The position numbers and the translations under genes were made by a program. Under the pieces are notes generated by a model, which made no database searches, had not been told where the DNA came from, and worked only from the letters and a program-made list of their open reading frames with translations. Shown one piece after another: positions 4,177 through 30,600 of a stretch of 32,000 nucleotides of DNA; positions within the stretch are counted from its first letter, which is position 1, and every line of letters starts with the position of its first letter. The DNA is from Desulfotalea psychrophila LSv54 (GTDB lineage Bacteria; Desulfobacterota; Desulfobulbia; Desulfobulbales; Desulfocapsaceae), in the NCBI RefSeq assembly GCF_000025945.1, contig NC_006138.1:2370001-2402000 (forward strand), given 5' to 3'.

Positions 4177-6699
4177 CTACATTTTGCGCTTAGTTCTTGA
4201 TGTTGCCTGTGCCTCCAGGGGGTTATCGGGCCAATAATGTTTTGGATAACGTCCTGCAAGTTCCTTTTTAATTTCTGGATATGTCCTCTGCCAAAATGAT
4301 TTTAAATCCTTAGTTATTTGCATTGATCGTCGTGCCGGTGAGAGTAGGTGCAGAGTTAATGGTAGTGAACCTCCACAAATAGTTGGTGTATCGCACATGC
4401 CAAAGACCTCTTGGAGTCGTACTGCAAGCCTTGGCTCATCACCCAGGTGATATGTTATTTTTATATTCGATCCACTAGGAACTTTGGTGTGAGTTGGAGC
4501 CAAAGTTTGTAATAGTTGTTGTTTGTTGTATGAAAGTTTCGCGAGCAATGCGGATTGAAAATCAATATCTCTAAGTTGCTGCACTTTGGTGAATCCGTAG
4601 CAAAAAGGCTCTAACCATGTGAGGTCTTGTATAAGGGCCTCATCTGAGAAATCCTGCCAGTTATTTTGATCGTAATTAAATAAAGTTTGAAGACGGGCTT
4701 GTAGCTCTCGACTTGATTTGGACCATGGTAAGGCCTCACTGCCAGTCTCTTGTATGCCTTTCAGCAATAGAGTGAGAGCGACATCCTTGTCTTGCAAAGA
4801 GATTGGTTTAGAAGATATTTTTGCCAAACCAATAAATGTCTCGCGCCTTGCCTGTACTGCCAGCTCTTTTTTATCCCACCTGATATGATCCGAAGTTGAA
4901 ATAAGGTCGGGATGATTCTTTTCTAGTTCCATGAGAGTTGTTGGTGCTGCTAGAAATATTTTCCCATTTCCTCCTCTAACATCTACCTTGGCAGCTACAA
5001 TTATTTGTGAGTTGTTCAGACTATCCTGGGCACTGATTCGTGCTTGTCGACCATTCGCCAGTTGGAAGGTAGAGTCCTGTTGAGATCGCCCAATTGCAAT
5101 ACGGTCCGGATAACAAAAGCAAAGAAGATTGCCGGTTTCCTCAGAGTTGATTGTTTCTGCCCACCTGATGCCAAGCGTTTTTCGCCATTGTTCAACTTGC
5201 TGTAAAATTTGTTTGCACACCTGAGTGTTGAGGTTTGCTCTCCCAGAATAGCTGGAAGAGCGGTTGCTTAGAGAGGAAAGTGCTTTTATACGATCTCGAA
5301 TATCTATACCATTATCATGCCCTTGGAAAATATCTCGTTCTGAAAGGATACCGGCAAGGTAACAGCCAGTGAGGCCTAAAGAGAGTTCTGTTGCCTTAAG
5401 TAACATGTAGCTTAGGCGTGGATGGAGTGGGAATTTTCGTAGCTTTCTGCCGATATCGGTTATTTCACCCTTTTTGTTCAGTGCACTTAATTGAGTTAAG
5501 AGCTTTACCGCTTTTTCCCACGCTCCTTTACCGGGAGGATCCAGCCACTTGAGCTGTTTTGCATCGTTTACACCCCAGTGAGCAAGTTCGAGCACCAAGC
5601 TCGTGAGATCAGCATTGCAGATTTCAGGTGGTGTGAATGCAAGCAGGCCATGATGAATTTTTTCATCCCAAAGTCTGATACACATACCGCTGTTTTGTCT
5701 CCCTGCCCGGCCACGACGCTGCTCTGCAGATGCTCTAGATATCCTTGAAGTGACAAGGCTTGTTAGACCGTTCTTTGGGTTGTAAACCGGATGTTTATGT
5801 AAGCCGCTATCAACAATACAGCGCACACCATCAACAGTGAGGCTTGTCTCTGCTACCGGAGTTGCGAGGACCACTCTTCTTTGCCTGTTTTGTTTTGGGG
5901 CGAGAATTTTATCTTGCTGTTCTATTGGCAGATCACCGTATAGGGGCAGTATCTTGACATTGTTCCCAATGCTTTCAAGTTCCCTCTCAACAGATTTAAT
6001 GTCTGCAATTCCAGGGAGGAAAGTTAAAATATCACCTTCATAGTTGGCCAGGGCATAGGATATAGCCGAAGTTACACTCATTGACAATGGGGTGAATTCT
6101 GTGGCAGGAGGCTGGTAAATCACAGAAACGGGGAAACTCTTACCTGCACTTTCCACTATTCGGGCATTATCAAGAAGTTTTGCTAATTTCTCACTATCTA
6201 AGGTAGCGGACATTACAAGTAACCTGAAATCTTCACGAAGAGTTGCCAGGTCAAGACAAAGTGCAAGGCAGAGATCTGCAATGAGGCTTCGCTCATGATA
6301 TTCATCGAAAATAACAAGCCCAATATCTGTGAGTTCCTGATCTTTTTGGATTGTTTTAAGGAAAACGCCTTCTGTAACGATAAATATTTTTGTATTTGCT
6401 GAAAATTCTTTGGAGTAGCGAGTGATGTAACCAACCGTTTGTCCAATCCTTTCTCCTAAGAGAGAACTCATTCTGTAGGCAGCGGCCCTTGCAGCCACTC
6501 TGCGCGGCTCAAGCATGTAGATTTTTTTCCCGTGAAGCCAATCTTGGCCTAATAGGGTTATTGGTGCAATTGTAGTTTTTCCTGAACCCGTAGGGGACTT
6601 GAGGACGGTGTGACCAGCGGCAAGGCTCTCTTGCAGGCTATCAAGAACAGCAGAGATTGGGTAATTTGAGAGAGATTTAGTTATAGTTGGGTTTTGCAT
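4177..6699 (-). CDS. hrpB: ATP-dependent RNA helicase HrpB (DEAH box), 840 aa
   Basis: Motifs in order: TGSGKTT (Walker A), DEYHERS (DExH), SATLD, TPVAETSLTVDGV, QRRGRAGR. Length and the long C-terminal extension are typical of HrpB. ATG at 6697-6699. Confidence 0.9.
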   Translation of the reverse strand: MQNPTITKSLSNYPISAVLDSLQESLAAGHTVLKSPTGSGKTTIAPITLLGQDWLHGKKIYMLEPRRVAARAAAYRMSSLLGERIGQTVGYITRYSKEFSANTKIFIVTEGVFLKTIQKDQELTDIGLVIFDEYHERSLIADLCLALCLDLATLREDFRLLVMSATLDSEKLAKLLDNARIVESAGKSFPVSVIYQPPATEFTPLSMSVTSAISYALANYEGDILTFLPGIADIKSVERELESIGNNVKILPLYGDLPIEQQDKILAPKQNRQRRVVLATPVAETSLTVDGVRCIVDSGLHKHPVYNPKNGLTSLVTSRISRASAEQRRGRAGRQNSGMCIRLWDEKIHHGLLAFTPPEICNADLTSLVLELAHWGVNDAKQLKWLDPPGKGAWEKAVKLLTQLSALNKKGEITDIGRKLRKFPLHPRLSYMLLKATELSLGLTGCYLAGILSERDIFQGHDNGIDIRDRIKALSSLSNRSSSYSGRANLNTQVCKQILQQVEQWRKTLGIRWAETINSEETGNLLCFCYPDRIAIGRSQQDSTFQLANGRQARISAQDSLNNSQIIVAAKVDVRGGNGKIFLAAPTTLMELEKNHPDLISTSDHIRWDKKELAVQARRETFIGLAKISSKPISLQDKDVALTLLLKGIQETGSEALPWSKSSRELQARLQTLFNYDQNNWQDFSDEALIQDLTWLEPFCYGFTKVQQLRDIDFQSALLAKLSYNKQQLLQTLAPTHTKVPSGSNIKITYHLGDEPRLAVRLQEVFGMCDTPTICGGSLPLTLHLLSPARRSMQITKDLKSFWQRTYPEIKKELAGRYPKHYWPDNPLEAQATSRTKRKM

Positions 6700-7568: not shown

Positions 7569-9006
7569 ATGCGTAGATTTTTAAACTTTTTTTCCTTTAC
7601 TACAGCCCTTGTGGTCTTTTTGGGTTTTGGCGGAGTAGCCTTTGCGACTGGCTCTGGAATGGTTCAGGACACCTTGAATCTGACAAAGCACTGGGGAGGA
7701 TATGTTGCATTGATAGTCTTCGTGGTGGCGTATGTATTTGTCATGCTTGAAGAGATTACGCATATGCGAAAATCCAAACCGGTCCTGTTAGCTGCCGGTA
7801 TTATCTGGGGTGTGATCGGCCTGATATATGCGATGAATGGCATTGATCATGCTGCAGAGGCTGCCCTGCGTCATAATATTCTCGAATATGCAGAGCTGTT
7901 TCTCTTTTTGCTGGTGGCCATGACCTTTATCAATGCCATGGATGAGCGGCAAGTCTTTGAGGTTCTCCGGGTAAAGCTGGTCAATGCCGGTTACTCCTTC
8001 AGAAAACTCTTCTGGATCACCGGTTTGCTGGGCTTTTTCATCTCTTCGGGTGCAGACAATCTTACCACGGACCTGTTGATGTGTGCTGGGGCGATGGTTA
8101 TCGGCAAAGAGGATAAAAAATTTGTAGGCCTGGACTGAATTAATATTGAGTGCTGCCGCCAATGCGGGCGGTGCTTTTAGCCCCTTTGGAGACATTACCA
8201 CCTTGATGGTATGGCAGAAGGGAATTATCCAGTTTCAGGAATTTTTCGTATTATTTATCCCCTCTGTCGTCAATTGGCTTGTGCCGGCAGTTATAATGAG
8301 CTTTGCCGTACCAAATAAGCAGCCTGAATCAGGCATTGATGATATAAAACTGAAGCGTGGGGCCCTTGTGATTATAGGTCTTTTTCTCTGGACCATCGCC
8401 ACTGCTGTAAGCTTTCATAATTTTCTGAAACTGCCACCGGTGGCTGGTATGATGGCCGGTTTGTCGCTCTTGAAAATATTCGGCTACTACCTTAACAAAA
8501 CCCATGTTAAAAACCGTTTAACCTATGATCCAGTAAAAGCGGAACAACGGATCGGCCAGATCGTTCCATTTGATATTTTCGCCAAGGTAGCACGGGCAGA
8601 ATGGGATACACTGCTTTTTTTCTACGGTATCATCCTCTGTGTTGGTGGTCTCGGTTTCATGGGTTACCTCGGCCTTGCCTCAAACATAATGTACCTTGAC
8701 CTGGGGCCGACAACCGCCAATATCATTGTAGGATTTCTCTCAGCAATTGTTGATAACATTCCGGTCATGTTTGCCGTTCTGACCATGATGCCGGAGATGT
8801 CTCAAGGTCAGTGGCTACTTGTCACCCTGACAGCGGGAGTTGGTGGAAGCATGCTGTCCATTGGTTCAGCCGCAGGGGTGGCACTTATGGGGCAGGCCAG
8901 AGGCAAATATACATTTTTCGGACACCTCAAATGGTCTCCGGTGATTGCCCTGGGATACGTAGCAAGTATCTATACCCATTTCCTCATAAACAGTTCATTG
9001 ATGTAG
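7569..9006 (+). pseudogene. nhaD: NhaD-type Na+/H+ antiporter, interrupted by a frameshift (pieces 7569..8138 and 8146..9006)
   Basis: The two adjacent ORFs are 189 aa and 286 aa, both polytopic membrane proteins, and together match the roughly 475 aa of NhaD. The second piece opens with AANAGGAFSPFGDITTLMVWQ, which I recognise as the NhaD signature. AGGAG lies 9 nt upstream of the ATG at 7569. Frame 0 stops at TGA 8136-8138. The downstream frame is closed upstream by TAG 8125-8127. The only stop-free path therefore switches frame within 8128-8135. Confidence 0.65.
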
Positions 9007-11751: not shown

Positions 11752-12399
11752 ATGAATATTACCTACAGAGATGCTTCTGTTAATGACTTTAGCACTATTA
11801 TACAAATATTTGTAAAGAATATGTCCCACAGCGTATTTACTAAAGCAACTGATAAAGATGTCCTTAGCTGCATAGCAGCTATTCAGATGGCAGAAGAATT
11901 TCATATTGCAAGTTGTATCAAAATAGCTGAATGGGATGGAGAGATATGTGGTGTTTTGATAGGTGCAACTGATGCTAGTGTGCCACCAGCAGTTTCATTC
12001 GACTATAACGCAATGATAAGAGATGCCAACATAAAGTTAACGACCACGAGTGAAGGACAGATGGTTTTAACAGAAATGCTTTTACATAATAAAAACGTAA
12101 AATTTGAATCGGAATGTGAGGTGATATTAGACTGTGATGGAGAATTGATGTTTTTTGCTGTGAATCAAGAGTACCGGCGCTACAAGATAGGATCTTGCTT
12201 AGTGAAGAACTTTGAAGAGTTTCTTCAGAAATGTGGTAGCAAAAAATATTTCCTTCATACTGATAGTCAATCCACTTTTCAATATTATGAGAACAACGGG
12301 TTTGAATGTGTGTGGAAAAAACAAAGTATATTTAACTCATCCGTTGAGCATTATACATACGTAAAAGAATTAGGAGCATGTTGCGTTTCGAGGTCGTAA
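11752..12399 (+). CDS. GNAT-family N-acetyltransferase, 215 aa
   Basis: Acetyl-CoA binding block FFAVNQEYRRYKIGSCLV (the Q/R-x-x-G-x-G/A type) followed by YENNGFE. AAAGGGA lies 11 nt upstream of the ATG at 11752. The track's TTG at 11743 is too close to this RBS. The last 68 nt overlap the transposase remnant on the opposite strand. Confidence 0.7.
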   Translation: MNITYRDASVNDFSTIIQIFVKNMSHSVFTKATDKDVLSCIAAIQMAEEFHIASCIKIAEWDGEICGVLIGATDASVPPAVSFDYNAMIRDANIKLTTTSEGQMVLTEMLLHNKNVKFESECEVILDCDGELMFFAVNQEYRRYKIGSCLVKNFEEFLQKCGSKKYFLHTDSQSTFQYYENNGFECVWKKQSIFNSSVEHYTYVKELGACCVSRS

Positions 12400-12742
12400 C
12401 TTGGTAAAGGAATGTTTTATTGTTACTTGTTGGGGCCCGACGATTGGTTGGCCGCTTCTTAAATAAATTTGGTTTGAGTTGATGAAACTCTTTCAGCTTA
12501 TCCATGGGCGTTAAATGCTTCAATGCTTTTTGCGGGTGGCTATTATAAACGAGTTCGTATCGGTGCATTGTATCCTCAAGATCTTGTGCTGACTCGAAAG
12601 TAGTTCTTTTCAGAATGGCAGCAATGCGCCCATTGAAACGTTCAACCATTCCGTTTGATTGAGGATGCATTGGCTTTATAAGTCTATGCTCAATATTGTG
12701 GACGGTGCAATTTTGGTCAAAACCATGTTTACCTGTATGTAC
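12332..12742 (-). mobile_element. rve (DDE integrase-core) transposase C-terminal remnant, IS481-like
   Basis: The frame is open from 12742 (closed upstream by TAA). It reads ..FDQNCTVHNIEHRLIKPMHPQSNGMVERFNGRIAAILKRTTFES..LYNSHPQKAL..TP... This is the block that follows the catalytic E in rve transposases. The N-terminal two thirds, carrying the two catalytic D residues, are missing. Confidence 0.7.
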
Positions 12743-12978: not shown

Positions 12979-13995
12979 TCAAGATTCTTCAGGATAACAG
13001 CCACAAAGGCAGTTCGCAAGCTTGTCAGGCGTCAGTTGCCAGAAGTAGCACTGCAGATCGACGCTACATAGCGCCCTTTTGAATTCATCAAGATCATAAC
13101 GTCGACCGGTCAGCACTGCTTCCAATCCTTGCATATCATTTCCACAGGCACTATCACCACAAATCTTGATATTTTTGACAATCCCCCCCTTTACCATTAG
13201 GTCAAGGTCAATCCGGCAGTCATTCAACCGGGCGGTTCTGCGGATACGGCATTCAGGGGATTTGCCATAGTTCCATTCCCAGGCATGGTACTTTTCTTTG
13301 GACAGCAGGTGGATGTCTTTCCAGTCCTTGTCGGTCAGTTTCTTTTCCCGCATGCCGCCGTACGGCGCAAAAATAGAATCCTGTATACTGTTCTTGAAAG
13401 TGTCCATATCCATGTAGCCTACAAGGTGCTCGCAGATGTTTGTCACCCTGCTTCTGACGGATGGTACGCCCCTGGAGTCAGTTTGCTCCACTTTCCCCTT
13501 CAGGGCGCGAGCCAAGTCTTGCATCTCCACATCAAAAAGCAGTGTTCCGTGGCTGACTATGCTCTTTTTCGTTGAATATTGGGCCATTCCAGATATTTTC
13601 ATGCCGAAAGCGAAGATATTGTTTCTCTCGGAAAGTTCTGCCGGAACGCCCAGGCCCTGCAATGCCTTGATAACCGGCGCGGTGATTTTTTTGAAATTAA
13701 GTATGTTCGATTTTTCGTATTTGGTGATGAAACTAAAATTCAGATTCCCGTGGTCATGGTAGACGGCGCCACCTCCCGAAATCCTGCGAACGACATGAAT
13801 CTCCTTCTGTCTGACGAATGCGTGATCGATTTCCTGAAACGCATTCTGGCTTCTTCCTATTATGACAGCAGGCTCATTGATATACAATAGCAGGTAGTCA
13901 TGCTGCGGATCAAGATTCCTCAGGCAATATTCTTCGAAAGCCAGGTTGAGGCGCGGGTCGGTAATGCCGGAATTATCGATAAATAACATGGCCAT
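12979..13995 (-). CDS. lplA: lipoate-protein ligase A, 338 aa
   Basis: The N-terminus DPRLNLAFEEYCL...YINEPAVIIGRSQN...VVRRISGGGAVYHDHGNLNFSFI is the classic LplA pattern. ATG at 13993-13995. GC is 43-53% on three hand-counted lines, intermediate between the flanks and the upstream operon. Confidence 0.9.
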   Translation of the reverse strand: MAMLFIDNSGITDPRLNLAFEEYCLRNLDPQHDYLLLYINEPAVIIGRSQNAFQEIDHAFVRQKEIHVVRRISGGGAVYHDHGNLNFSFITKYEKSNILNFKKITAPVIKALQGLGVPAELSERNNIFAFGMKISGMAQYSTKKSIVSHGTLLFDVEMQDLARALKGKVEQTDSRGVPSVRSRVTNICEHLVGYMDMDTFKNSIQDSIFAPYGGMREKKLTDKDWKDIHLLSKEKYHAWEWNYGKSPECRIRRTARLNDCRIDLDLMVKGGIVKNIKICGDSACGNDMQGLEAVLTGRRYDLDEFKRALCSVDLQCYFWQLTPDKLANCLCGCYPEES

Positions 13996-14078
13996 CCTTG
14001 ACCTCTGCTGTTGAAACCTGAAAACAGGCTATGGATCGGTTACGGGCATTGGCAAGGTGCAGGCCGGCCTGCCAAACC

Positions 14079-14324
14079 TCAGTCGATGCGGGCAGCGAGG
14101 TAGCCGATGAGGTCGTTTAGGGTAATGATCTGTCCATAGTCCTCCTCTGGAATTTCCACCCCGAGTTCTTCATAGAGCTTGACGAAAAAAGTGAGGACAT
14201 CAAAAGAGTCGATGTCGAGGGCATCCTGCATGTTCTCGTCGGCAGCCAACCCATCTAAATCGGCTTCGGGGGTGATTGGTTGCAGGGCCCGGAGGATGGT
14301 CTCTTTGATTTGCTCTTTTCTCAT
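14079..14324 (-). CDS. acyl carrier protein, 81 aa
   Basis: [11 protein letters not shown]...[28 protein letters not shown]...LNDLIGYL has the D-S-F/L-D phosphopantetheine attachment motif and the acidic helix II of an ACP. Its ATG overlaps the E2 stop (ATGA at 14321-14324). The 46 Pro/Arg-rich codons upstream in the track ORF are read-through of the E2 3-prime end in another frame. Confidence 0.85.
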
Positions 14325-15514
14325 AACTCTTCCGGTTTTTGCAGGTGGTGGTTGAGGGCTTCCAGAAACTGGGCCCCGCGATGGCCGTCGGTGGCACGGT
14401 GGTCTGCGGCCAGAGTGGCTGTCAGGATGGGACGAATGCCGAGCATACCGTCCTTGGCCCAAGGCTGCTCCAGGATTTTACCGAACCCGACCAGCGCTAC
14501 TTGGGGGGGATAGATGACGCCATGAACCACCTCAACCCCCAGGTCCCCCAGGTTTGTTATGGTAACGGTAGCATCGGTCAGCTCCGAGCTGCGCAGGTGA
14601 CCGCTGCGGGTGCGGGTAATCAGGTCGGACAAGGTTTCCATCAGCTCGGGCAGGCTCTTGAGGTTGGCATGGTGAATGGCCGGTGCCACCAGGCCGCCCT
14701 GCCGAAGCGAGATAACGAAGCCGATATGCACCGCTTCCTCGGGCTGTTGGCGATTGTCGAGCCAATAACCGTTGAGTTCCGGCACCTTTGCCAGGGCCAG
14801 GGCGGTGGCTTTGATCAGCGGCACCACAGGCAATACCCGCTCCTTGATAGAACGTTTCTTGTTCTCTGCCTCCAGCCAGCGCAGGGTATTGCTCATATCG
14901 ATGCGGCTGGCCAGATAGTAATGAGGAATTTCCCGGTTGGACCGGGCCATTGCGGTTGCAATGGCCTGCCGCATGGCGGCCCCTGGCGTAGATGGCACCG
15001 ATTGGGCTGCGGCCTTTTCCGCCGCTGCGGCACGTTCAATGTCGATGCCGGTGATGGCGCCGCCCTGCCCTGTGCCCTGGACTGTGCTCAGTTCAACGTC
15101 CAGTTCAGCAAGCAGCTTGCGCGCCCGGGGCGAAATCCTCAGCCTTTTGCCCGCTGCAGTGACCACAGCCGGAGGCGGCTCTGCCGCCGGTTCCTCACGG
15201 TGCGCCGCGATCAGGCAGGCCTTGTACTTGAACACCGGTTCCGGCAACGCTTCTTCCCTCAGCTCCCTGCCCTGCTCTCCGTTCCCCTGGATGGTCGCCA
15301 GCACAGTGCCCACGGGAACATTCTCGCCCCGCTGGACCAGGATCTGCTCGATGACGCCGTCGGTAAACACCTCGATCTCGATCACCCCTTTTGCGGTTTC
15401 CACCTCGGCAATGATATCGCCACGTTTGACCTGATCGCCCAGCTTGACCTTCCATTCGACCAGCCGCCCCTCTTTCATGTCGGCACCCAGGCTGGGCATG
15501 CGGAACTCAGTCAT
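14321..15514 (-). CDS. 2-oxoacid dehydrogenase E2 (dihydrolipoamide acyltransferase), 397 aa
   Basis: Lipoyl domain [23 protein letters not shown]...[10 protein letters not shown]3-binding-like segment [34 protein letters not shown], and catalytic domain ending [19 protein letters not shown] (DHRxxDG). The start at 15512-15514 overlaps the E1beta stop by 8 nt (ATGACTGA). The track ORF extends 66 codons further upstream. Confidence 0.9.
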
Positions 15515-16505
15515 TGGAAGCCACCATTCTTTTTGCGGTTGTGACGATGGTCTCAGCCTGCGGCATCGCCGCGTCTTCAAGGTGTTTGGCGTAGGGCATG
15601 GGGACCTCGGCGCCACAGATCCTCTCGACGGGGACATCCAGATCGTAAAAGGCACCTTCCATGATACGTGCACTGATCTCTGCGGAAATTCCCCCGCTAC
15701 GCCAGCCTTCATCGACGATCAGTGCCCGGTGCGTAGTTGCGATGGAGGAGAGGAAAGTCTCCTCATCCAGCGGCCGCAGGGTCCGCAGGTCTATCACTTC
15801 CGCCTCGATGCCTTCGCCGGCGAGTGCTTCGGCCGCCTCCAGAGCCTTGAACAGGCTGGCGCCGTAGGTGATGATCGTCAGGTCACGGCCTCGTCGGCGT
15901 ATCAGGGCCCTGTCAATGTCCACGGCTCCTGCGTCTGCCGCCAGCGGCCCCTCCATGTTCAGCAACCCCTGGTGTTCAAAGATGAGCACCGGATCGGGGT
16001 CTTCCAGGGCGGTCCAGAGCATGCCTCGCGCATCCTCCAGGGTTGCCGGGGTCAACACCTTGATGCCGGGAACATGGGCATACCACCCCTCCAGGCTGTG
16101 AGAGTGCTGGGCCGCCAGCTGCTTGCCGCCGCCGGTGGACATGCGGATAACCAGAGGAACATTGAACAGCCCGCCCGACATATGCAGAAATGTTGCGGCA
16201 TTGTTGATGATCTGATCGGCTGCCAAAAGGCTGAAATTGACCGTCATAATTTCCACGATGGGACGCATGCCGCCAAGGGCAGCCCCAATGCCGGCCCCGG
16301 TGAAGGCCGACTCCGACAGGGGCGTGTCGATGATCCGCTCCGGGCCGAACTCTTCGAGCAGCCCTTTACTGACTGCAAAGCAGCCACCGTACCGGCCGAC
16401 ATCCTCCCCCAAAAGAAACACTCTTTTGTCCCGTTGCATCGCTTCGCGCATCGCTGCCCGCACAGCTTCCCGATACGTGGTCTGAATCATGTTTTTTTCG
16501 CTCAT
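15507..16505 (-). CDS. 2-oxoacid (pyruvate/acetoin-type) dehydrogenase E1 beta subunit, 332 aa
   Basis: [63 protein letters not shown] is the typical transketolase-like pyrimidine-binding domain of E1beta. ATGA overlap with E1alpha at 16502-16505. Confidence 0.92.
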
Positions 16506-17509
16506 GTCGTCCCCCTTTCCGAATAAACAAAGCGCGTTAGATCCTCCACCGGCTCCCAGGTACCGTTTTCGGCAAAAGCCACCGCCTCTTCAATTTCCCT
16601 GGCAACTTGCCGCTCCAGTTTCTCCATGTCGCCATCGCTTAGCAGATCCTGCTTCTTGAGGCGTTTGACGAAGGAATCGATGGGGCAACGTTTCTTCCAC
16701 TTGTCGACCTCGGCCTTGGACCGATAGAGTTCCGGATCAAACATCGAATGGGCCCGGAAACGGTAGGTGCGGCACTCCAGAAAGTACGGTTTTTGTCCCG
16801 AGCGCACAGCGTTCACAGCTTCATTGGCCGCCGCCTCAACGGCAAGTACATCCATGCCATCCACGGCTGAGGCGGCAATGCGGTAGCTGACCGCCTTACG
16901 GGTCAGATCGGTGACCGACTGCGACCGCTCCAAGGCGGTGCCCATGGCATAAAGATTGTTCTCACAGATAAAAAGGACCGGGAGGTTCCAGAGGGCGGCC
17001 AGGTTCATCGATTCGTGAAACTCCCCTTCGGAGACGGCTCCGTCACCGAAGAAACAGCAGGTGACACGCTTTTTGCCCTGCATCTTGTCAGCCAGGGCCA
17101 ATCCCACCGCCAGTGGCAAGCCGCCGCCGACGATGGCGTTACCGCCGTAGAACCGGGTCTTGTCGTCAAATATGTGCATCGACCCGCCTCGCCCCCGGCT
17201 GCAACCCTCCTGTTTGCCGTACATTTCCGCCATGATGGCGCCGGCGGATATGCCACGGGCCAAGGCGTTGCCGTGTTCGCGGTAGGTGCCCACTGAGGCA
17301 TCCTCCGGTTCAAGCGCCGCGCTCACGCCAGCGGCCACCGCCTCTTCACCAATATAGAGATGCAGAAAGCCGCGGATCTTCATCTTGGTGTAGAGTTCAG
17401 CAGCCTTCTCTTCAAAACGCCGTATGCGCACCATCTGATACAGCAGCTGTCGCGCATGCGCAGGATCAACCCCGGCCCCTGCCGAGCCGCTTGTCGCTTT
17501 TACCTTCAT
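16502..17509 (-). CDS. 2-oxoacid (pyruvate/acetoin-type) dehydrogenase E1 alpha subunit, 335 aa
   Basis: [27 protein letters not shown]...YREHG... followed by the TPP motif [35 protein letters not shown] overlap with the upstream synthetase at 17506-17509. Confidence 0.92.
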
Positions 17510-19281
17510 TCGTCTACCTCCAGTGTCGATGTGTCGCCCTCGGCGAGCCCCAGCTCACGCGCCTTGAGTAGCCGCCGCATGATTTTGCCGCTGCGGGTCT
17601 TGGGCAGATTGTCACGAAATTCAATCTCTTTCGGAGCCACCGCCGAGCCAAGCTTCTTGCGTGCGAAGCCGATGAGTTCCAGACGCAACTCTTCGCTGGG
17701 TTCTGTGCCCGGCTTAAGGGTGACGAAGGCCTTGACCAACTCACCGATCAATGCTTCGGGCTTGCCGATGACGCCTGCCTCAGTCACCGCCGGATGCTCC
17801 AGCAGCGCGCTTTCGACTTCGAACGGCCCGACCATATGGCCCGAGGTTTTGATAATGTCATCGGCACGGCCGACAAACCAGAAATAGCCGTCCGCATCGC
17901 GATAAGCCAGATCACCGGTTATGTACCAGTCGCCGACAAAGCATTTGCGGTAGCGCTGCTCCTCATGAAGATAAGCACGGAACATGGAGGGCCAGCCGGG
18001 CCGTAAGGCCAGTTCGCCCTGGGTGCCCGGTTCGGTAACTGCTTCGGCCCTTTCCCCGGTGCCGCGCCGCACGATCGCCGCCTCGATCCCCGGCAGCGGT
18101 AAGCCCATAGAACCAGGGCGGATGTCTACGGCTGGGTAATTGGCGATCATAATGCCGCCTGTTTCGGTCTGCCACCAGTTGTCATGGATTGGTAGGCCCA
18201 GACTTTGCTGTCCCCAGGATACGGCTTCGGGGTTGAGCGGTTCACCAACGCTATGAATGCAGCGCAGGTGGCTCAGATCATACTGTTTGGTGGGATCGAT
18301 GGCCAGGCGCATCAGTCGCCGAATGGCTGTGGGGGCTGTGTACCAGATATTTACCTGCTGCTCCTCCAGCAGCTGGTACCAGCGCTTGGCATCGAACTCT
18401 GCTTCGTCGATGATGTTGGTTACGCCGTGAACGAGAGGGGCGATAATGCCGTAGGAGGTGCCGGTGACCCAGCCGGGGTCGGCGGTGCACCAGAAAACAT
18501 CTCCGGGGTGAAAATCGAGTACGTACTTACCGGTCAGGTAGTGGGTAAGCACCGCATTGTGTACATGAACAGCACCCTTCGGCATCCCCGTGGTACCACT
18601 GGTAAAATGGACAATCGCCATATCCTCCGGGTCAGTCGGTGGAATGATAAACGCGTCCGCAGCCTCTTCCATACGTCTGGGCAGCGACCAGAGGCCTTCA
18701 CCGATATCTTGCGCCGCATCGATGAGCAGGATATGTTTTAGCTGCGGCAGTCGCTCGCGCAGAGCGGCGACTTTCTGTTTATAGAGCCGCTCGGTGGTCA
18801 CCAGGACCTTGGCATCGCCCTTGCTCAGGCGTTGATAGATTGGCTCCGAGCCAAAAGCGGAAAACAGTGGACAGAAGACGCTGCCGTTCTTCCAGGTGCC
18901 AAAGGCAGAGAAATATAGCTCGGGCACCCGCCCTGCCAGGGTGAACACCCGCTCTCCCCTGCCGATATCCAGTTCCCTGAGCACGTTGGCAAAACGGTTG
19001 CTCTGTCTCTTCAGGTCTGAGTAGCTGAAGTCACGAACGCCGCCGTCCTTGCCCAGCCAGCGTATGGCCAGACGGTCACCCCGCGGGCCATTGGCATGAC
19101 GGTCTACAGCCTCATGGGCGATGTTCAAACCCTTGTTTTCCGGTAGTCCGTCCAATTCCCGACGGGCTGTTGCCCATGAAAACTGGTCACAGGTTTTGCC
19201 ATAGTCCAAGAGGTTCGGTTGCACTGCCCAGGAATTGGCAGCCTTTGTGATCGCTTTGCAAGGCCCGGAATCATCTTTCAT
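17506..19281 (-). CDS. AMP-forming acetyl/acyl-CoA synthetase (Bacillus AcsA-like), about 591 aa
   Basis: AMP-binding motif [23 protein letters not shown]-like [12 protein letters not shown]-terminal RSGKIMRR. The N-terminus resembles short AcsA-type enzymes ([11 protein letters not shown]). I prefer the ATG at 19279-19281, preceded by GAGGTG. The track starts at a GTG two codons earlier (19287). Confidence 0.85.
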
Positions 19282-19768
19282 CTTCACCTCTGTCTGCCGG
19301 TATCACTGGAATCAATCAATAGTTGCCAGCTTCTTTTCAGTTCATCTGGGCTTTTAGCATTTTCGACAGCCGCCGAAACAATTGTTGTTCATTTCGGTTA
19401 TGATGCAGATAATCTGGCAAGCCGTTTGGCTCTGGTTCCTCTGTCAATTATACAAACGCAGGTGCTGGCGGTTAGCCTGGCTGCATAATGTCTTAAACGT
19501 GCACCATATCAGAAGCTCAGACCTCTCAAATAAGCCTCTGACTATAGGTCGGAAATTGTGAAAAGGTTGTGTTGAGCCATGAAGTTGTAGCCGGTTTTAT
19601 GATAAATCGGGTCGTGCTTGACACTGCCTTTATATTATATATCTGTATGGCAGAAACATTTGCACTCCATACCAATGTTTAATGTTCGCATTTTCCCTGG
19701 TTCATATCAAGAAAAAGGCGACAAAAAGAATTTCAAGGATTCATTCGTGTCCATTGACAGTTGCTACC

Positions 19769-24371: not shown

Positions 24372-25226
24372 TTACTGATATTTAGCAAAGAGGCTTTGCA
24401 TTGTCTCCTCCGATATCCTTCGCTTATAAAGCGGTGTGGTGGCATCATGGTATAAACGATGGGACTTTTCAAAAGGAGTTTTGTTCATGTTTTTATAGAT
24501 AATCCCAAGCGGATACGGATCGGTTTCCAGCGACTTGGCGAACGCCACAGCCTGATTGGACCAGTCATGGTCTTCTGCTAGCTCGGCTGTATTTTCTACA
24601 TACCATTTATAGGTATTTGTCTTGTTAAAGGTTACGCAGGCCTGAAAGATATCTACTATTGCCATGCCATCGTGAGCGATAGCCTCTTTAATGATTTCTT
24701 TACTGAGTTCTGGTTTATGCATTGAAGTGCGAGCAACAAAAGAGGCATCAAGGCTTATTGCCAGGGCGAGTGGATTAAGAGGTGTTGCAGCTACACCTGT
24801 TACCTGAGCAGGAGTCACCATGCCATACAGACTGGTGGGAGAGGCCTGCCCTTTGGTAAGACCATAAACCATATTGTCATGCACCAGAACAGTGATATTA
24901 GGGTTACGCCGGATAGCATGAATAAAATGATTACCACCCTCTCCATACATATCCCCATCGCCACTCTCAACAATCACATGAGTTTCGGGTTGAGCAGCCT
25001 TAATTCCTGTGGCTGCGGGCAGGGACCTACCATGCAATCCATTAAAATAACTTGCATTATAAAACTGAGGTGCCTTGGCCGCCTGACCTATGCCTGAAAC
25101 AAAAATCACCTCTTGGCGTTCCATCTCAATCTCTTTTAAGATCTCTAATATTATTTTTCGGATAGCAAAGTTGCCACAACCTGGGCACCAGGAAATATCA
25201 GGTTGTAGATCAAATAAGTCTTTCAT
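24372..25226 (-). CDS. korB: 2-oxoacid:ferredoxin oxidoreductase beta subunit (TPP-binding), 284 aa
   Basis: WCPGCGNF near the N-terminus and the TPP motif GDGDMYGEGGNHFIHAIRRNPNITVLVHDNMVYGLTKGQASPT. ATGA overlap with korA at 25223-25226. GGAGGAG RBS. Confidence 0.9.
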   Translation of the reverse strand: MKDLFDLQPDISWCPGCGNFAIRKIILEILKEIEMERQEVIFVSGIGQAAKAPQFYNASYFNGLHGRSLPAATGIKAAQPETHVIVESGDGDMYGEGGNHFIHAIRRNPNITVLVHDNMVYGLTKGQASPTSLYGMVTPAQVTGVAATPLNPLALAISLDASFVARTSMHKPELSKEIIKEAIAHDGMAIVDIFQACVTFNKTNTYKWYVENTAELAEDHDWSNQAVAFAKSLETDPYPLGIIYKNMNKTPFEKSHRLYHDATTPLYKRRISEETMQSLFAKYQ

Positions 25227-26923
25227 ATCATCTCCTCCGTAATGCTCTGGACAAGTTCTTCAACTGAGAACGGCATGCCATTATATTTTAGTATGCGATG
25301 AGGAAAGAGCCTGCCCAGTTCTCTTTGCAGAAAATCTGCAAATTGGCCTAGCTGATTATTCTCCACCACCACCACCTTTTGCGCACCATCTATATACTCA
25401 GCAATTTTCTCAGAGAGCGGATAGAGTTGCGGGCAAAACAGAAAAGATACCTTGCCACTACCAATAATCTGAAGAGCCTCACAAATTGCCCCGTAGGTCG
25501 AGCCCCAACCAATGATCAAGGTTGCATAGTCAGGTTCACCCACCAGCTCTGGTAGCATGGCCGCTTTTGTAAGAGTTTCTAGCTTTTTCAGCCGATTATC
25601 TGCCATTGCCAGATGTATCCCATCAAGGTCTTCTGTGATTTTACCATCTTCATCATGCTCGTCTGAGTCTAAACAGACATTGCCAGAACCATATCCGGGT
25701 ATGCCGCGTGGTGAAACACCATCTTCGCTTAGTTGGTATCTCTTATAGCTATCATCGGTTTTAATCACTGCGGATTCAATCTGCACCTGCCCTGCATCCG
25801 GATGAGCAATAGGGTAATAACTATCCACAAAGAATTGATCCGTTAAGACAAAAACTGGTATTTGAAAACGATCTGCAAGGTTGAAGGCAAGTCGCGTATA
25901 CTCAAAGGCCTGTTCAAGGGTGCCGGGTGCGAGAATAAGTCTGGCAAATTCCCCATGTCCTGCATACAAGACCAGATTCAGGTCACCTTGCTCGGTTCTT
26001 GTTGGTAACCCTGTTGCAGGCCCTGGACGTTGCGCCAAATGCACCACAACGGGAGTTTCTGTCATGCCGGCAAGAGAAATTCCCTCGGTCATCAAGGCAA
26101 AACCACCACCTGAAGTAGAGACAATGGCACGACCACCTGCATACCAGGAGCCTATGGCCATATTAATCACCCCGATTTCATCTTCCACCTGTTCCACAAC
26201 AATGTCTGCCTGCTTGGAAAATTCGGCCAGTGTTAAAAAAACTGATGTACCCGGTGTCATTGGATAGGCAAATGCAGCATTACACCCTCCTGCCATAGCA
26301 CCAAGTGCCACTGCATCAGCACCATTGAGGAGTAGGTTCTCTTGCAATGATCTGTTTTTGGCGGGAGTTGGTCGCCCACTAGTCAATAGTCTTGAATGAG
26401 AGGCCATGCCAATCTTATACCCCTCTTCGGCAGCGTCTATATTGCCAGCAATAATCCCTTCTGATTTGAGGGAAAAAGTGTCTCTGATCTCTTTATACAA
26501 ATTAGCAGAATCGAAATCGAGCAGACCACAGAGAAAACCTAAGGCTACAGAATTGGTGTACAGTTGATTACCATGTTTTTTGGCTGTTGCTGCAAAATCG
26601 ATTTCAGTGTCACGACCGCCGATATGCTCACGGCTACCTACTATTGTGGTTGATTTGGTAACCCTGCTACCAAGATGTTCTATAACACCATTTTTCAGTG
26701 GAATGAGAAGATCTATCACATCCACATGGGCACGAACTGGCTCGGAAGAAATTCTTATTTCTGTGGTATTTATTCCTCCCCGTACCCGGGACATATATTC
26801 TTTAGTAGCAAAAACATACAAACCACTTTCTTTGACAATATGTAGCAGGGCCTTTTCTAGGAATTGAATTCCTTGACCCGCTTCGCCGCCCAAAACAAGG
26901 GTAAAACCTTTGACTCCACCCAT
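25223..26923 (-). CDS. korA: 2-oxoacid:ferredoxin oxidoreductase alpha subunit (fused gamma-alpha domains), 566 aa
   Basis: N-terminal gamma-like domain GGEAGQGIQ...EYMSRVRGG, then the alpha domain NGADAVALGAMAGGCNAAFAYPMTPGTSV...GGRAIVSTSGGGFALM. The size is typical of two-subunit KorAB/OFOR enzymes. ATG at 26921-26923. Confidence 0.9.
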   Translation of the reverse strand: MGGVKGFTLVLGGEAGQGIQFLEKALLHIVKESGLYVFATKEYMSRVRGGINTTEIRISSEPVRAHVDVIDLLIPLKNGVIEHLGSRVTKSTTIVGSREHIGGRDTEIDFAATAKKHGNQLYTNSVALGFLCGLLDFDSANLYKEIRDTFSLKSEGIIAGNIDAAEEGYKIGMASHSRLLTSGRPTPAKNRSLQENLLLNGADAVALGAMAGGCNAAFAYPMTPGTSVFLTLAEFSKQADIVVEQVEDEIGVINMAIGSWYAGGRAIVSTSGGGFALMTEGISLAGMTETPVVVHLAQRPGPATGLPTRTEQGDLNLVLYAGHGEFARLILAPGTLEQAFEYTRLAFNLADRFQIPVFVLTDQFFVDSYYPIAHPDAGQVQIESAVIKTDDSYKRYQLSEDGVSPRGIPGYGSGNVCLDSDEHDEDGKITEDLDGIHLAMADNRLKKLETLTKAAMLPELVGEPDYATLIIGWGSTYGAICEALQIIGSGKVSFLFCPQLYPLSEKIAEYIDGAQKVVVVENNQLGQFADFLQRELGRLFPHRILKYNGMPFSVEELVQSITEEMI

Positions 26924-27651: not shown

Positions 27652-30600
27652 ATGAAAAATTTATTATTGATCGAAGTATTGGCTGGCGGAGAAGTTGTTG
27701 AACATCCTCTGACAATATCGGCGTCCTTTGGCGCCCAGGCGGGGGCGATTTACTCTGTCCTCGACCAGGACCATCGCATCCCGGACAATCTCATCATAAA
27801 ACGAAGCGGCGATAATCTTGACATTGAAATCGATGAAGAGCCTGTTGCCCAAATTGAAGATTTCTACGGTCAGGAGCTTGGGGCTAGATACAGTGTCGAT
27901 GGATCCCTGGCCCCCGCTGAGGGGATGGCCATCACTGACACCACAACGGCTGGCCCAACGGATGAAATCGTCTGGCAGGCCTCCGAGGGGGCAGAGTCAA
28001 TCAGCCCGTGGGTTTGGGCCGGTGGCCTGTTGGGTGCCGGCGGTATCGCCGTCGCAGCAGGCGGAGGCAGTTCAGATAGTAGCAGCTCAGTAGATAAGGG
28101 TAGTGATAGCCACGACGTCACCGTCAGGGGTGTTGCCGGTCCATTTCTGGCCACTTCCCATGCGATCGTTGAAGTTTACGATGGCCAGGGCAATCTGCTC
28201 GGCGGTGGTAAATTTGAGACCAGCGGCCAGGTTAAACTCACCATTGGCGACTATAAGGGGGCAATTCTTGTCAAGGTAATCGACAACAATGAGGGTGCAG
28301 GGGATTACCTTGATGAGGCCAGCGGCCTTTCTCTCAGCCTCGGTGCGCCCCTGCGCGCCATGGGCTATTCCGATGGAAACGGTGATGTCTATATCAGCGT
28401 CACCCCTCTGACCGAGCTTGCCGCCCGCCAGGCCGGCATCACCGGCAATGAGGTCAACGAAGCCGATCTTGCCGCCAACGACCAGATCGCAGAACTCTTT
28501 GCCGTTGAAGATATCCTGGCCCCCGTTGTCACCGTTGTCGAAGACGGCTACGACAGCAGCGACGAGATCAATGAGACGGCAGAACACTATGGTGAGATCC
28601 TCGCCCAGCTGTCCGGTGCCGATAGTACCACCACCGGAATGGCCAAGACCCTTGACCAACTGGAAAACGCCATCACCGAGCTGGGGGATGGAAAATTAGC
28701 CTTAAGTCAAGAGGGGGTTGAGCTACTCGCTGACGGTGTTGATGCCTTTACAAACGGAGTTAATGGCAATCGGGCTGACCTCGGGAACAGCCTCATTCAA
28801 CCTCCCCTGATCGAGGCGGCCAATGACGGTATTAATGCTGCCGACAAGGATGCCGGCATCCTTGTAAAAATATCTGGGGTAAAAGCTGATGACGGGGTCA
28901 GCCTCCAATGGGGAGAGCAAACGCAAGACTTTATCATTGCAGGCATAGATATCGATGACGAGGGAATGGCCTCCATCACCCTGCCCGCCAGTATTGTTGA
29001 GGCCGCAGGTGATGGCTCAACTGTCGTTCGCTATCAGATCAACGCCGGTGATATGAGTCCGGCCGTTATAATTGAGGTCGACACCATGGCACCAGATGCA
29101 CCGACCTTAGCCGAACTCATTACAACCGATCTGGACGACACTCTCATGAATGCTGCTGAGTCGCTATCAACAGACTTCCAAGCAACACTACCAACAACAG
29201 GTTCACTTGCAGTGGCAGGTGACAGCATCGAGTTGCTTCTTGATGGCAGCTCATTTGCAACAGCAAAGACGGTGATACTTTCTGCTGATGACATCACTAA
29301 CGGCTCTGTGAATTTCACTGTTACTAACGCTGATCTCGGTAGCGACGGTGCCAAGGCATTGACTACACAGTTAACCGATATGGCTGGCAATGTGGGCATT
29401 ATCAGCAATGCGATGGACTTCACCCTTGATACCACCCTACCAGCTGCACCGACCTTAGCCGAACTCACTAGCACCGATTTGGGCGACACTCTCATGAATG
29501 CTGCTGAGTCTCTATCAACAGACTTCCAAGCAACACTACCAACAACAGGTTCACTTGCAGTGGCAGGTGACAGCATCGAGTTGCTTCTTGATGGCAGCTC
29601 ATTTGCAACAGCAAAGACGGTGATACTTTCTGCAGACGACATCACTAACGGCTCTGTGAATTTCACTGTTACTAACGCTGATCTCGGTAGCGACGGTGCC
29701 AAGGCATTGACTACACAGTTAACCGATATGGCTGGCAATGTGGGCATTATCAGCAATGCGATGGACTTCACCCTTGATACCACCCTACCAGCTGCACCGA
29801 CCTTAGCCGAACTCACTAGCACCGATTTGGGCGACACTCTCATGAATGCTGCTGAGTCTCTATCAACAGACTTCCAAGCAACACTACCAACAACAGGTTC
29901 ACTTGCAGTGGCAGGTGACAGCATCGAGTTGCTTCTTGATGGCAGCTCATTTGCAACAGCAAAGACGGTGATACTTTCTGCAGACGACATCACTAACGGC
30001 TCTGTGAATTTCACTGTTACTAACGCTGATCTCGGTAGCGACGGTGCCAAGGCATTGACTACACAGTTAACCGATATGGCTGGCAATGTGGGCATTATCA
30101 GCAATGCGATGGACTTCACCCTTGATACCACCCTACCAGCTGCACCGACCTTAGCCGAACTCACTAGCACCGATCTGGGCGACACTCTCATGAATGCTGC
30201 TGAGTCGCTATCAACAGACTTCCAAGCAACACTACCAACAACAGGTTCACTTGCAGTGGCAGGTGACAGCATCGAGTTGCTTCTTGATGGCAGCTCATTT
30301 GCAACAGCAAAGACGGTGATACTTTCTGCAGACGACATCACTAACGGCTCTGTGAATTTCACTGTTACTAACGCTGATCTCGGTAGCGACGGTGCCAAGG
30401 CATTGACTACACAGTTAACCGATATGGCTGGCAATGTGGGCATTATCAGCAATGCGATGGACTTCACCCTTGATACCACCCTACCAGCTGCACCGACCTT
30501 AGCCGAACTCACTAGCACCGATCTGGGCGACACTCTCATGAATGCTGCTGAGTCGCTATCAACAGACTTCCAAGCAACACTACCAACAACAGGTTCACTT

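Follow-up and report, generated by a model that had tools for sequence, protein, structure and literature searches.

Introduction

Why should an acyl carrier protein (ACP) stand directly behind the E2 acyltransferase of a 2-oxoacid dehydrogenase operon, in the position which is expected for E3? This question is raised by a stretch of 32,000 nucleotides from Desulfotalea psychrophila LSv54 (contig NC_006138.1, positions 2,370,001 to 2,402,000), called the window in the following, in which five overlapping genes encode an AMP-forming ligase, E1 alpha, E1 beta, E2 and an ACP. This group of genes is referred to here as the cassette. Pyruvate dehydrogenase (PDH) complexes are textbook enzymes, for which coenzyme A (CoA) is taken as the acyl acceptor; the cassette pairs a variant of such a complex with an ACP of its own and with an acetate ligase.

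The cassette is widespread and unrecognised. The variant is common; among its carriers are Nitrospira, Rhodococcus, Streptomyces, Burkholderia, Cupriavidus, Sinorhizobium, Bacteroidota, Acidobacteriota, Chloroflexota and sulfate reducers. Full-text literature searches yielded no published description of it, and the current database names of its genes are generic ("pdhA", "acsA", "acyl carrier protein"). Metabolic reconstructions in which these genes are read as a complete aerobic PDH need correcting. From the data described below, the ACP would probably act as thiol partner for E2 or for the ligase, the most economical case being that it serves both enzymes.

Gene Order and Junctions

Six co-directional genes of the minus strand span positions 19287 to 12979. 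The first gene (17506..19287) encodes a ligase of 593 amino acids, an AcsA-type AMP-forming acetate ligase (NF003313, AMP-binding, AMP-binding_C). It is followed by E1 alpha, the thiamine diphosphate-binding subunit of PDH type (16502..17509, 335 amino acids; TIGR03182, Pfam E1_dh), E1 beta (15507..16505, 332 amino acids; NF006667, Pfam Transket_pyr and Transketolase_C), the dihydrolipoyl acyltransferase E2 (14321..15514, 397 amino acids; Pfam Biotin_lipoyl, E3_binding and 2-oxoacid_dh) and the dedicated ACP (14079..14324, 81 amino acids; PF00550 PP-binding). LplA, a lipoate-protein ligase of 338 amino acids (12979..13995, TIGR00545), is next downstream. All four junctions among the five cassette genes are overlaps of start and stop codons, three of them of the form ATGA and one, between E1 beta and E2, of 8 nucleotides. 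At the last junction the TGA stop codon of E2 and the ATG start codon of the ACP share the four nucleotides 14321..14324, an arrangement of translational coupling.

A first-pass annotation of this DNA, made from the sequence alone, had placed the ACP directly after E2 with its ATG overlapping the E2 stop codon, an AMP-forming ligase at the head of the operon, and a DSFD phosphopantetheine site in the 81-residue carrier. All three features were found again, and the family searches which it had proposed, carried out with the Pfam and NCBIfam hidden Markov models (HMMs), upheld all gene assignments. An open reading frame (ORF) of 401 amino acids on the plus strand (14339-15544), antisense to E2, was taken as an artefact of the GC-rich sequence.

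Distribution and Conservation of the Cassette

For a genome survey, one genome per species was scanned with a profile of the E2 protein, and neighbouring genes were identified by ORF and HMM analysis within 10 kb on either side (20-kb loci). The survey yielded 80 loci from more than 10 phyla, with E2 identities of 47-64%; roughly 85 related loci were available in all. The order ligase-E1 alpha-E1 beta-E2-ACP, on the same strand, was present in 78 of the 80 genome loci. In the two exceptions (L027 and L039) the contig ends within 270 nucleotides of the E2 stop codon, so that every locus which extends past E2 (78/78) contains the ACP. A count of E2 followed by ACP across genomes had been suggested in the first-pass annotation, and this is its outcome. 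The opposite pattern, which was also envisaged there, namely lpdA regularly beyond the cassette and an ACP which is not conserved with E2, was not encountered: the ACP occurs in 78 of 78 loci, lpdA in 2 of 80. The overlap of four nucleotides between E2 and ACP (ATGA or GTGA) is kept across phyla, in 72 of 82 loci. Metagenomic contexts agreed with this: four divergent homologues of the ACP (44-61% identity) were found at the end of ligase-E1 alpha-E1 beta-E2-ACP, in four of four cases. The adjacency of E2 and ACP is far beyond chance.

The phyla represented include Desulfobacterota, Chloroflexota, Acidobacteriota, Verrucomicrobiota, Planctomycetota, Gemmatimonadota, Cyanobacteriota and Myxococcota, besides others; further examples are from Bacteroidota (Flavobacterium caseinilyticum, Ginsengibacter hankyongi), Nitrospirota (Ca. 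Nitrospira defluvii) and Actinomycetota (Cellulomonas soli). Plasmids carry the cassette as well, in Rhodococcus, Cupriavidus, Ralstonia, Burkholderia, Paraburkholderia, Methylocystis, Azospirillum, Leisingera, Sulfitobacter, Sinorhizobium, Streptomyces and Photobacterium. Every annotated plasmid-borne E2 with at least 37% identity to the E2 of the window belongs to a cassette. The next group of plasmid E2 proteins, from Enterococcus, has 31% identity and is encoded in an acetoin-type operon (lpdA-E1 alpha-E1 beta-E2) with butanediol dehydrogenase and no ACP.

The Carrier Protein

The ACP matched PF00550 with 31.5 bits (cut-off 20.8). Its predicted attachment site for phosphopantetheine is Ser40 (codon 14205..14207) in the motif D-I-D-S-F-D. 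All NCBIfam cut-offs for ACPs were missed, the best score being 39.5 for NF009104 (cut-off 70), and no named ACP family such as AcpP, AcpM or DltC was reached; housekeeping use of this dedicated ACP in fatty acid synthesis is therefore unlikely. An AlphaFold2 model, calculated from an alignment of 40 sequences (pLDDT 92.5), had the four-helix fold of ACPs, and helix II of the model starts with Ser40. Foldseek searches with the model retrieved type II ACPs, with a TM score of 0.85 to the ACP of T. maritima at sequence identities of 20-25%, and among the structural neighbours were ACPs from complex I, MmpL5 and EmbAB, where they act as structural components.

Within the family (82 sequences) Asp39-Ser40 and Pro19 are invariant and the signature IAPE...IPExDY is conserved. 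The family is large: a profile search of 1.84 billion cluster representatives returned 1086 representatives, clustered at 50% identity, with E<=1e-10. Nearly all of the 150 relatives which were listed are stand-alone proteins of 80-150 amino acids, and one has 239 amino acids.

Additional carrier proteins were noted in a few places. In two loci a second PP-binding paralogue is situated directly behind the first ACP (L004:10327-10596 and L020:11598-11873). D. psychrophila itself possesses a second ACP of the same family (P0002), 91% identical, on a contig of plasmid size (121,587 bp). A plasmid E2 matching this ACP was not present among the best E2 matches; the P0002 contig is absent from the plasmid collection.

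The E2 Acyltransferase

E2 contains the three domains of a lipoyl-dependent acyltransferase, with E-values of 1.3e-19 for Biotin_lipoyl, 1.2e-10 for E3_binding and 9.5e-60 for 2-oxoacid_dh. Its lipoyl-lysine is K42 (codon 15389..15391, motif E-T-A-K-G) and its catalytic histidine His372 (codon 14399..14401, motif DHRATDG). Among the cassette E2 proteins, K42 is conserved in 85/85, H372 in 84/84, D376 in 83/84 and the motif DHRxxDG in 83/85 sequences. The protein scored below every NCBIfam equivalog cut-off for E2, the best match being TIGR01349 with 234.9 bits (cut-off 445); the AcoC model NF011457 gave 79.6 bits (cut-off 307), and this match was restricted to the lipoyl domain.

One position in the binding domain sets the family apart. 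In the motif GTGxxGR(I/V) the arginine (residue 153, at about 15056-15058 of the window) is replaced by Ala in 52 sequences, Val in 13, Ser in 6 and Thr in 3, and is kept in only 8 of 85; human E2p retains it in the alignment. In the Geobacillus complex this arginine contacts E3 and E1. Its replacement across the cassette proteins is a signature of this E2 family and may change the docking of E3 or E1.

The cassette E2 proteins (n=85) end with ...Q-E/K-P-E-K/E-L (window 14321-14345), a few residues short of the C-terminus of human E2p. In E2 cores a hydrophobic C-terminal "knob" mediates contacts between trimers, and the oligomeric state of the shorter proteins may therefore differ. A change of Ser to Thr in the "TISN" motif of E2 was considered as a marker of an altered acceptor and was dropped, since E2o of E. 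coli also has Thr in this motif.

The Question of E3

The absence of a dihydrolipoamide dehydrogenase (Lpd) gene from the entire window, which the first-pass annotation had noted, was borne out by two approaches. No Pyr_redox domains were detected by Pfam in window ORFs of at least 120 amino acids, and a tblastn search of the window with a genuine Lpd, taken from locus L012, gave only a match of 34 residues with E = 0.69. Within 10 kb of the cassette an Lpd gene was found in only 2 of 80 loci (L012 and L014), both from Anaerolineales and both with Lpd directly behind the ACP.

The notion of an ACP "in place of E3" is hence correct as far as the position of the gene is concerned. As a statement about function it probably does not hold, since E2 keeps the domain which binds E3 and E1, and in the two Anaerolineales loci Lpd simply follows the ACP. 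For the same two reasons E3 is probably still used by the cassette; it would be supplied in trans. Its use is also favoured by the intact lipoyl-lysine (85/85), the catalytic His and Asp residues, and the adjacent LplA gene.

In several unrelated lineages small flavoproteins are encoded between E1 alpha and E1 beta (L004:7390-7857, L044:8078-8650, L040:8436-9005, L066:8538-9026, and the corresponding gap in L054). Two of them are flavodoxins, two are nitroreductases and one gave a weak match to FMN reductases. They may be passengers from stress islands or, where E3 is not encoded nearby, may serve as alternative oxidants of the dihydrolipoyl group.

Probable Substrates of the Ligase and of E1

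The ligase scored 945.6 bits with the acetate-CoA ligase model NF003313 (cut-off 729), and its closest solved structure is an AcsA of 572 amino acids (PDB 9g79_B), matched over the full length with 569 bits. The acetate pocket of the Salmonella enterica enzyme Acs is shaped by the residues V310, T311, V386 and W414; their equivalents, with positions read off the alignment, are kept in 68-72 of 72 cassette ligases. NWWQTETG and SVGEP are present in 72/72 and GWVTG in 68/72 sequences, the catalytic lysine motif of 11 residues is conserved, and the motif PKTRSGK is present. With acetate pocket and catalytic lysine motif both conserved, the ligase should activate acetate or, at the outside, propionate, but neither octanoate nor lipoate. 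Activation of octanoate or lipoate in order to feed lipoylation was ruled out because the equivalent of W414 is invariant. Loss of the loop with R191/R194 was considered as an argument against the use of CoA by the ligase and was also dropped, since the bona fide AcsA (9g79) aligns without this loop as well.

E1 alpha scored 469.4 bits with TIGR03182, above the cut-off of the PDH equivalog (393.85), and 3e-91 with Pfam E1_dh; human PDH E1 alpha is the closest solved structure (254 bits). E1 beta reached 409.3 bits with NF006667 (cut-off 321). Since the acetate pocket of the ligase is intact and E1 scores as PDH type, the cargo of the ACP is most likely acetyl. In Leisingera plasmids a single "pdhA" protein of 665 amino acids combines E1 alpha with E1 beta (L087, Leisingera caerulea, 4185-6182), and E2 and ACP are separate, overlapping genes.

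Genomic Neighbourhood

Across bacteria the cassette is frequently embedded in stress or dormancy islands of the Usp/Hsp20 type. Usp-like ORFs were detected by HMM in 25/85 loci. By clustering of neighbouring ORFs and Pfam searches, tandem Usp genes were present in 22 loci, a phosphoribosyltransferase (PRTase) gene in 13, PolX in 12, GroEL in 11, Hsp20 in 10, malic enzyme in 9, a P-type cation ATPase in 8 and a gene similar to phosphoenolpyruvate (PEP) synthase in 7; CBS, BON and response-regulator genes are further recurrent neighbours. Some lineages have genes inserted inside the cassette, for flavodoxin, nitroreductase, DUF5655, HtrA, DnaJ, GroEL, BON or glucokinase.

The composition of individual islands varies. 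The cassette of Streptomyces fungicidicus is accompanied by five Usp genes, Hsp20, nicotinate PRTase, ADH and flavodoxin; that of Burkholderia sp. JP2-270 by CBS, PRTases, nitroreductase and BON; that of Leisingera by Usp, ppsA and a hexose kinase; and that of Sinorhizobium fredii by a DnaJ-like protein, FtsH, Usp, pncB and Hsp20. In Rhodococcus DK17 the neighbours are ppsA, a pfkB-like kinase, Usp, a GAF sensor kinase with response regulator, and otsB, and the kinase/regulator pair resembles DosS/DosR. The set of neighbours as a whole resembles the mycobacterial DosR regulon. A paper on the OsdR regulon has no mention of cassette genes.

A dedicated consumer of a carrier-bound acyl group was not apparent. 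The window contains, in its ORFs of at least 120 amino acids, no Pfam domains of nonribosomal peptide synthetases (NRPS), polyketide synthases (PKS), condensation enzymes, thioesterases or a dedicated phosphopantetheinyl transferase (PPTase), which agrees, for NRPS and PKS, with the remark in the first-pass annotation that no PKS, NRPS or fatty acid synthase (FAS) partner is present. Nor was any NRPS, PKS or FAS family recurrent among the neighbours of the cassette in the 80 genome loci (10 kb) or in the roughly 85 related loci. With no conserved consumer found, a carrier-bound intermediate would most simply be made and used inside the cassette.

Acquisition of the Cassette by D. psychrophila

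The five cassette genes of D. psychrophila coincide with a GC-rich island (14000..19290). Their GC content is 59.4%, compared to 43.9% in the flanks, with local ranges of 58-62% inside and 38-47% outside and with sharp edges. The difference of +15.5 points between cassette and flanks is the largest of 73 loci (median +2.4). The GC content at third codon positions (GC3) is about 0.70 in the cassette, about 0.40 in host genes and 0.57 in LplA. A transposase remnant with an integrase core, an ORF of 112 amino acids on the minus strand (12332..12670; Pfam rve_3, 1.3e-06), adjoins the block. Together, the GC island, the contrast in GC3 and the transposase remnant indicate that the cassette was acquired horizontally and recently. 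It may have arrived together with the lipoate ligase or next to it.

LplA reached 375.3 bits with TIGR00545 (cut-off 280); its gene begins 83 nucleotides downstream of the ACP on the same strand. In the 80 genome loci the cassette was accompanied by no LplA homologue of the kind, apart from a weak one in L004. LplA is therefore probably a local addition which lipoylates E2 and stands outside the conserved cassette, and with LplA adjacent a functional lipoyl arm of E2 is to be expected. Perhaps the acquired block is composite, with LplA recruited separately: its GC3 is intermediate, and the truncated rve_3 ORF follows. In L004, about 5 kb from the cassette (15087-19721), an LplA-like ligase, two radical-SAM genes and a GcvH-like protein form what looks like a lipoate-assembly or sulfur-carrier set.

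Elsewhere in the window, a transporter of the CitMHS family is split into two ORFs on the plus strand (7569-8138 and 8146-9006), which cover profile positions 1-112 and 127-336; the split probably reflects either a frameshifted pseudogene or an error in sequencing. An ORF of 965 amino acids on the minus strand (29034-31931) had no convincing Pfam match. Its GC content of about 50% is above that of its surroundings, positions 28001-29000 have 56%, and the region is perhaps another foreign segment.

A Possible Pathway and Other Explanations

We tentatively favour, at somewhat less than even chances, the explanation that E2 acetylates the ACP, that the ligase interconverts acetyl-ACP with acetate and ATP, and that E3 is borrowed. 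E1 would decarboxylate pyruvate, the substrate suggested by the family scores, and reductively acetylate the lipoyl-lysine of E2. The catalytic domain of E2 could then move the acetyl group onto the phosphopantetheine thiol of holo-ACP, either replacing free CoA or alongside it, and the ligase could act on the same carrier according to acetyl-ACP + AMP + PPi <-> acetate + ATP + holo-ACP (PPi, pyrophosphate). Finally, the dihydrolipoyl arm would be reoxidised by an E3 encoded elsewhere. The first-pass annotation had suggested that E2 or the ligase may load the ACP. This E2 clade is accompanied by the ACP in all loci which extend past E2 (78/78); action of E2, of the ligase or of both on the carrier is still a matter of inference. 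Operation of E1 and E2 in reverse, from acetyl-ACP to pyruvate, was ruled out on thermodynamic grounds, as inferred from established redox potentials.

For the ligase step we prefer the direction towards acetate and ATP, in the manner of a compact survival fermentation of pyruvate. This direction in particular is doubtful, and equal doubt attaches to the view that the cassette is a self-contained, CoA-independent energy salvage system, leading from pyruvate via acetyl-ACP to acetate and ATP by a reversed AcsA-type ligase. An AMP-forming acetyl-CoA synthetase which runs in reverse and makes ATP has reportedly been found in Syntrophus aciditrophicus, and Usp-dependent pyruvate fermentation supports the anaerobic survival of Pseudomonas aeruginosa; both serve here as leads and do not test the scheme. 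If the salvage reading were true, growth-arrested bacteria of many phyla would regenerate ATP directly from AMP, and the cassette would work as a single functional unit together with PEP synthase, sugar kinases and malic enzyme, which are encoded alongside it in pan-bacterial dormancy islands. If E2 does acylate the ACP, there would be a testable biochemical role for a conserved component of low-oxygen or dormancy islands, which bears on the persistence of pathogens and on environmental survival.

Several observations weigh against acetyl transfer to the ACP or against its role in energy salvage. E2 resembles an ordinary PDH E2, with human E2p as its nearest solved relative (203 bits), and no tested sequence feature separates ACP from CoA as its acceptor. 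Among the 150 best ACP relatives and the 120 best E2 relatives no fusion of E2 with ACP or of ligase with ACP was present, hence there is no Rosetta-stone support for either pairing. The arginine aligned with R584 of S. enterica Acs, a residue which binds the 3'-phosphate of CoA, is kept in essentially all cassette ligases; this fits CoA binding, short of proof, and the ligase may thus simply make acetyl-CoA. A source of PPi for ATP formation by a reversed ligase is not evident. Stress-island surroundings were seen in no more than about one third of the 20-kb loci, and not in the D. psychrophila window. D. psychrophila is a strict anaerobe, and a 2-oxoacid:ferredoxin oxidoreductase is encoded about 5 kb from the cassette (24372-26923, minus strand) by two genes which overlap, one for the alpha subunit (POR, POR_N) and one for the beta subunit (TPP_enzyme_C, PFO_beta_C), so that anaerobic oxidation of 2-oxoacids is already open to the host.

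Some of these points would lead to an ordinary CoA-dependent system with a chromosomal E3, in which the ligase and the PDH-type E1/E2 would both yield acetyl-CoA and the ACP would be a bound structural or regulatory subunit, or a sensor of acetyl supply, rather than the acceptor of E2. The fully canonical catalytic motifs of E2 and ligase, the CoA-contacting arginine equivalent in the ligase, the retained peripheral-subunit-binding domain of E2 and the structural ACPs of complex I, MmpL5 and EmbAB among the neighbours of the ACP model would all be accommodated. Such a role is possible though unlikely: the ACP is translationally and stoichiometrically coupled, specifically to the acyltransferase, in 72/82 loci, an LYR-like partner was not seen, and the invariant Asp-Ser (82/82) speaks in favour of a functional prosthetic group, even if such a group is also retained by structural ACPs. 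The evidence for acetyl-ACP would be identical if the ligase (with acetate), E2 (with pyruvate) or both loaded the carrier for enzymes encoded elsewhere, for example for the priming of storage lipids, polyhydroxyalkanoates or other acyl chemistry in growth arrest. The second PP-binding paralogue in L004 and L020 speaks for a supply line of this kind, and stress islands of this type can carry storage-polymer genes (PMC3721108). It would nevertheless seem rather improbable, since the 10 kb around the cassette in 80 loci of many phyla showed no conserved consumer, and housekeeping FAS enzymes are unlikely to serve this dedicated ACP in such diverse hosts.

Transfer of a C2 hydroxyethyl or glycolyl unit from a ketose phosphate via the ACP to a natural-product assembly line, as by QncN/L/M and SclQ1-4, would match the published description of E1-like and E2-like proteins with an ACP and no E3 in the cluster (PMC6335953). 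This is very improbable for the cassette, in which E1 alpha scores higher than the cut-off of the PDH equivalog, an acetate-specific ligase is always included and the genomic setting consists of stress genes; the assembly-line domains and a dedicated PPTase were not found in window ORFs of at least 120 amino acids and are not recurrent in the related loci. It is scarcely credible that the adjacency is fortuitous, or that the D. psychrophila copy is decaying foreign DNA without function. The GC island beside a transposase remnant and the split transporter gene nearby could be taken in that sense, but the five ORFs are intact with overlapping junctions, all catalytic and prosthetic-group residues which were checked are present, and the arrangement recurs in 78/80 genomes.

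Comparison with Known Systems

The cassette is closely similar to the PDH complexes of the alpha-proteobacterial and mitochondrial type, with heterotetrameric E1 and the gene order PdhA-PdhB-PdhC-Lpd. Both E1 subunits score above the PDH cut-offs, lipoyl, binding and catalytic domains are all present in E2, and the closest structures are human E1 alpha and E2p. In contrast to these complexes the cassette lacks an E3 gene (except for two of 80 loci), its E2 is below the equivalog cut-offs with the arginine of GTGxxGR mostly replaced, and it possesses an ACP coupled to E2 and an acetate ligase as invariant first gene. Acetoin dehydrogenase (AcoABCL) shares the heterotetrameric E1 and the lipoyl E2, and the Enterococcus proteins are the next-nearest plasmid E2 group; however, the acetoin operon contains lpdA and neither ACP nor ligase, and cassette E2 matches the AcoC model with its lipoyl domain only. 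The ligase has the acetate pocket, the catalytic lysine motif and the short-form architecture of Bacillus-type AcsA (PDB 9g79), from which it differs by always being in an operon with E1, E2 and ACP, by way of overlapping start and stop codons.

With respect to gene context, the lxa locus of Burkholderia cenocepacia is comparable. It is induced by low oxygen, as was demonstrated experimentally, and encodes ackA and pta, an ATP-yielding acetate branch (PMC3721108). It is an island of the same type, with Usp, Hsp20, PRTase, P-type ATPase, nitroreductase and two-component regulators, and the output proposed for the cassette would likewise be acetate and ATP from an acetyl thioester. The enzymes Pta and AckA are unrelated to those of the cassette, however, and lxa does not contain the cassette, so that this is an analogy by gene context.

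The only precedent for the output of a PDH-like acyl group to a carrier protein is provided by the C2-unit systems of quinocarcin (QncN/QncL/QncM) and scleric acid (SclQ1-4), in which E1-like and lipoyl E2-like proteins deliver a C2 acyl group to a stand-alone ACP; the formation of a glycolic-acid unit from ketose phosphate has been reported, and the genes belong to NRPS clusters with a PPTase (PMC6335953). From the published description, the stand-alone ACP beside a lipoyl E2-like acyltransferase and the lack of E3 in the cluster are common to these systems and to the cassette. The precedent, which the first-pass annotation had named, is real; it is a poor fit for the cassette, with its PDH-type E1, its E2 binding domain, its AcsA-type acetate-pocket ligase, its stress or dormancy setting and no assembly line (NRPS or PKS) nearby. 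Should E2 of the cassette acylate a protein-bound pantetheine, the mode of transfer known from the quinocarcin type would no longer be confined to rare secondary metabolism and would extend to a primary or stress function which is widespread.

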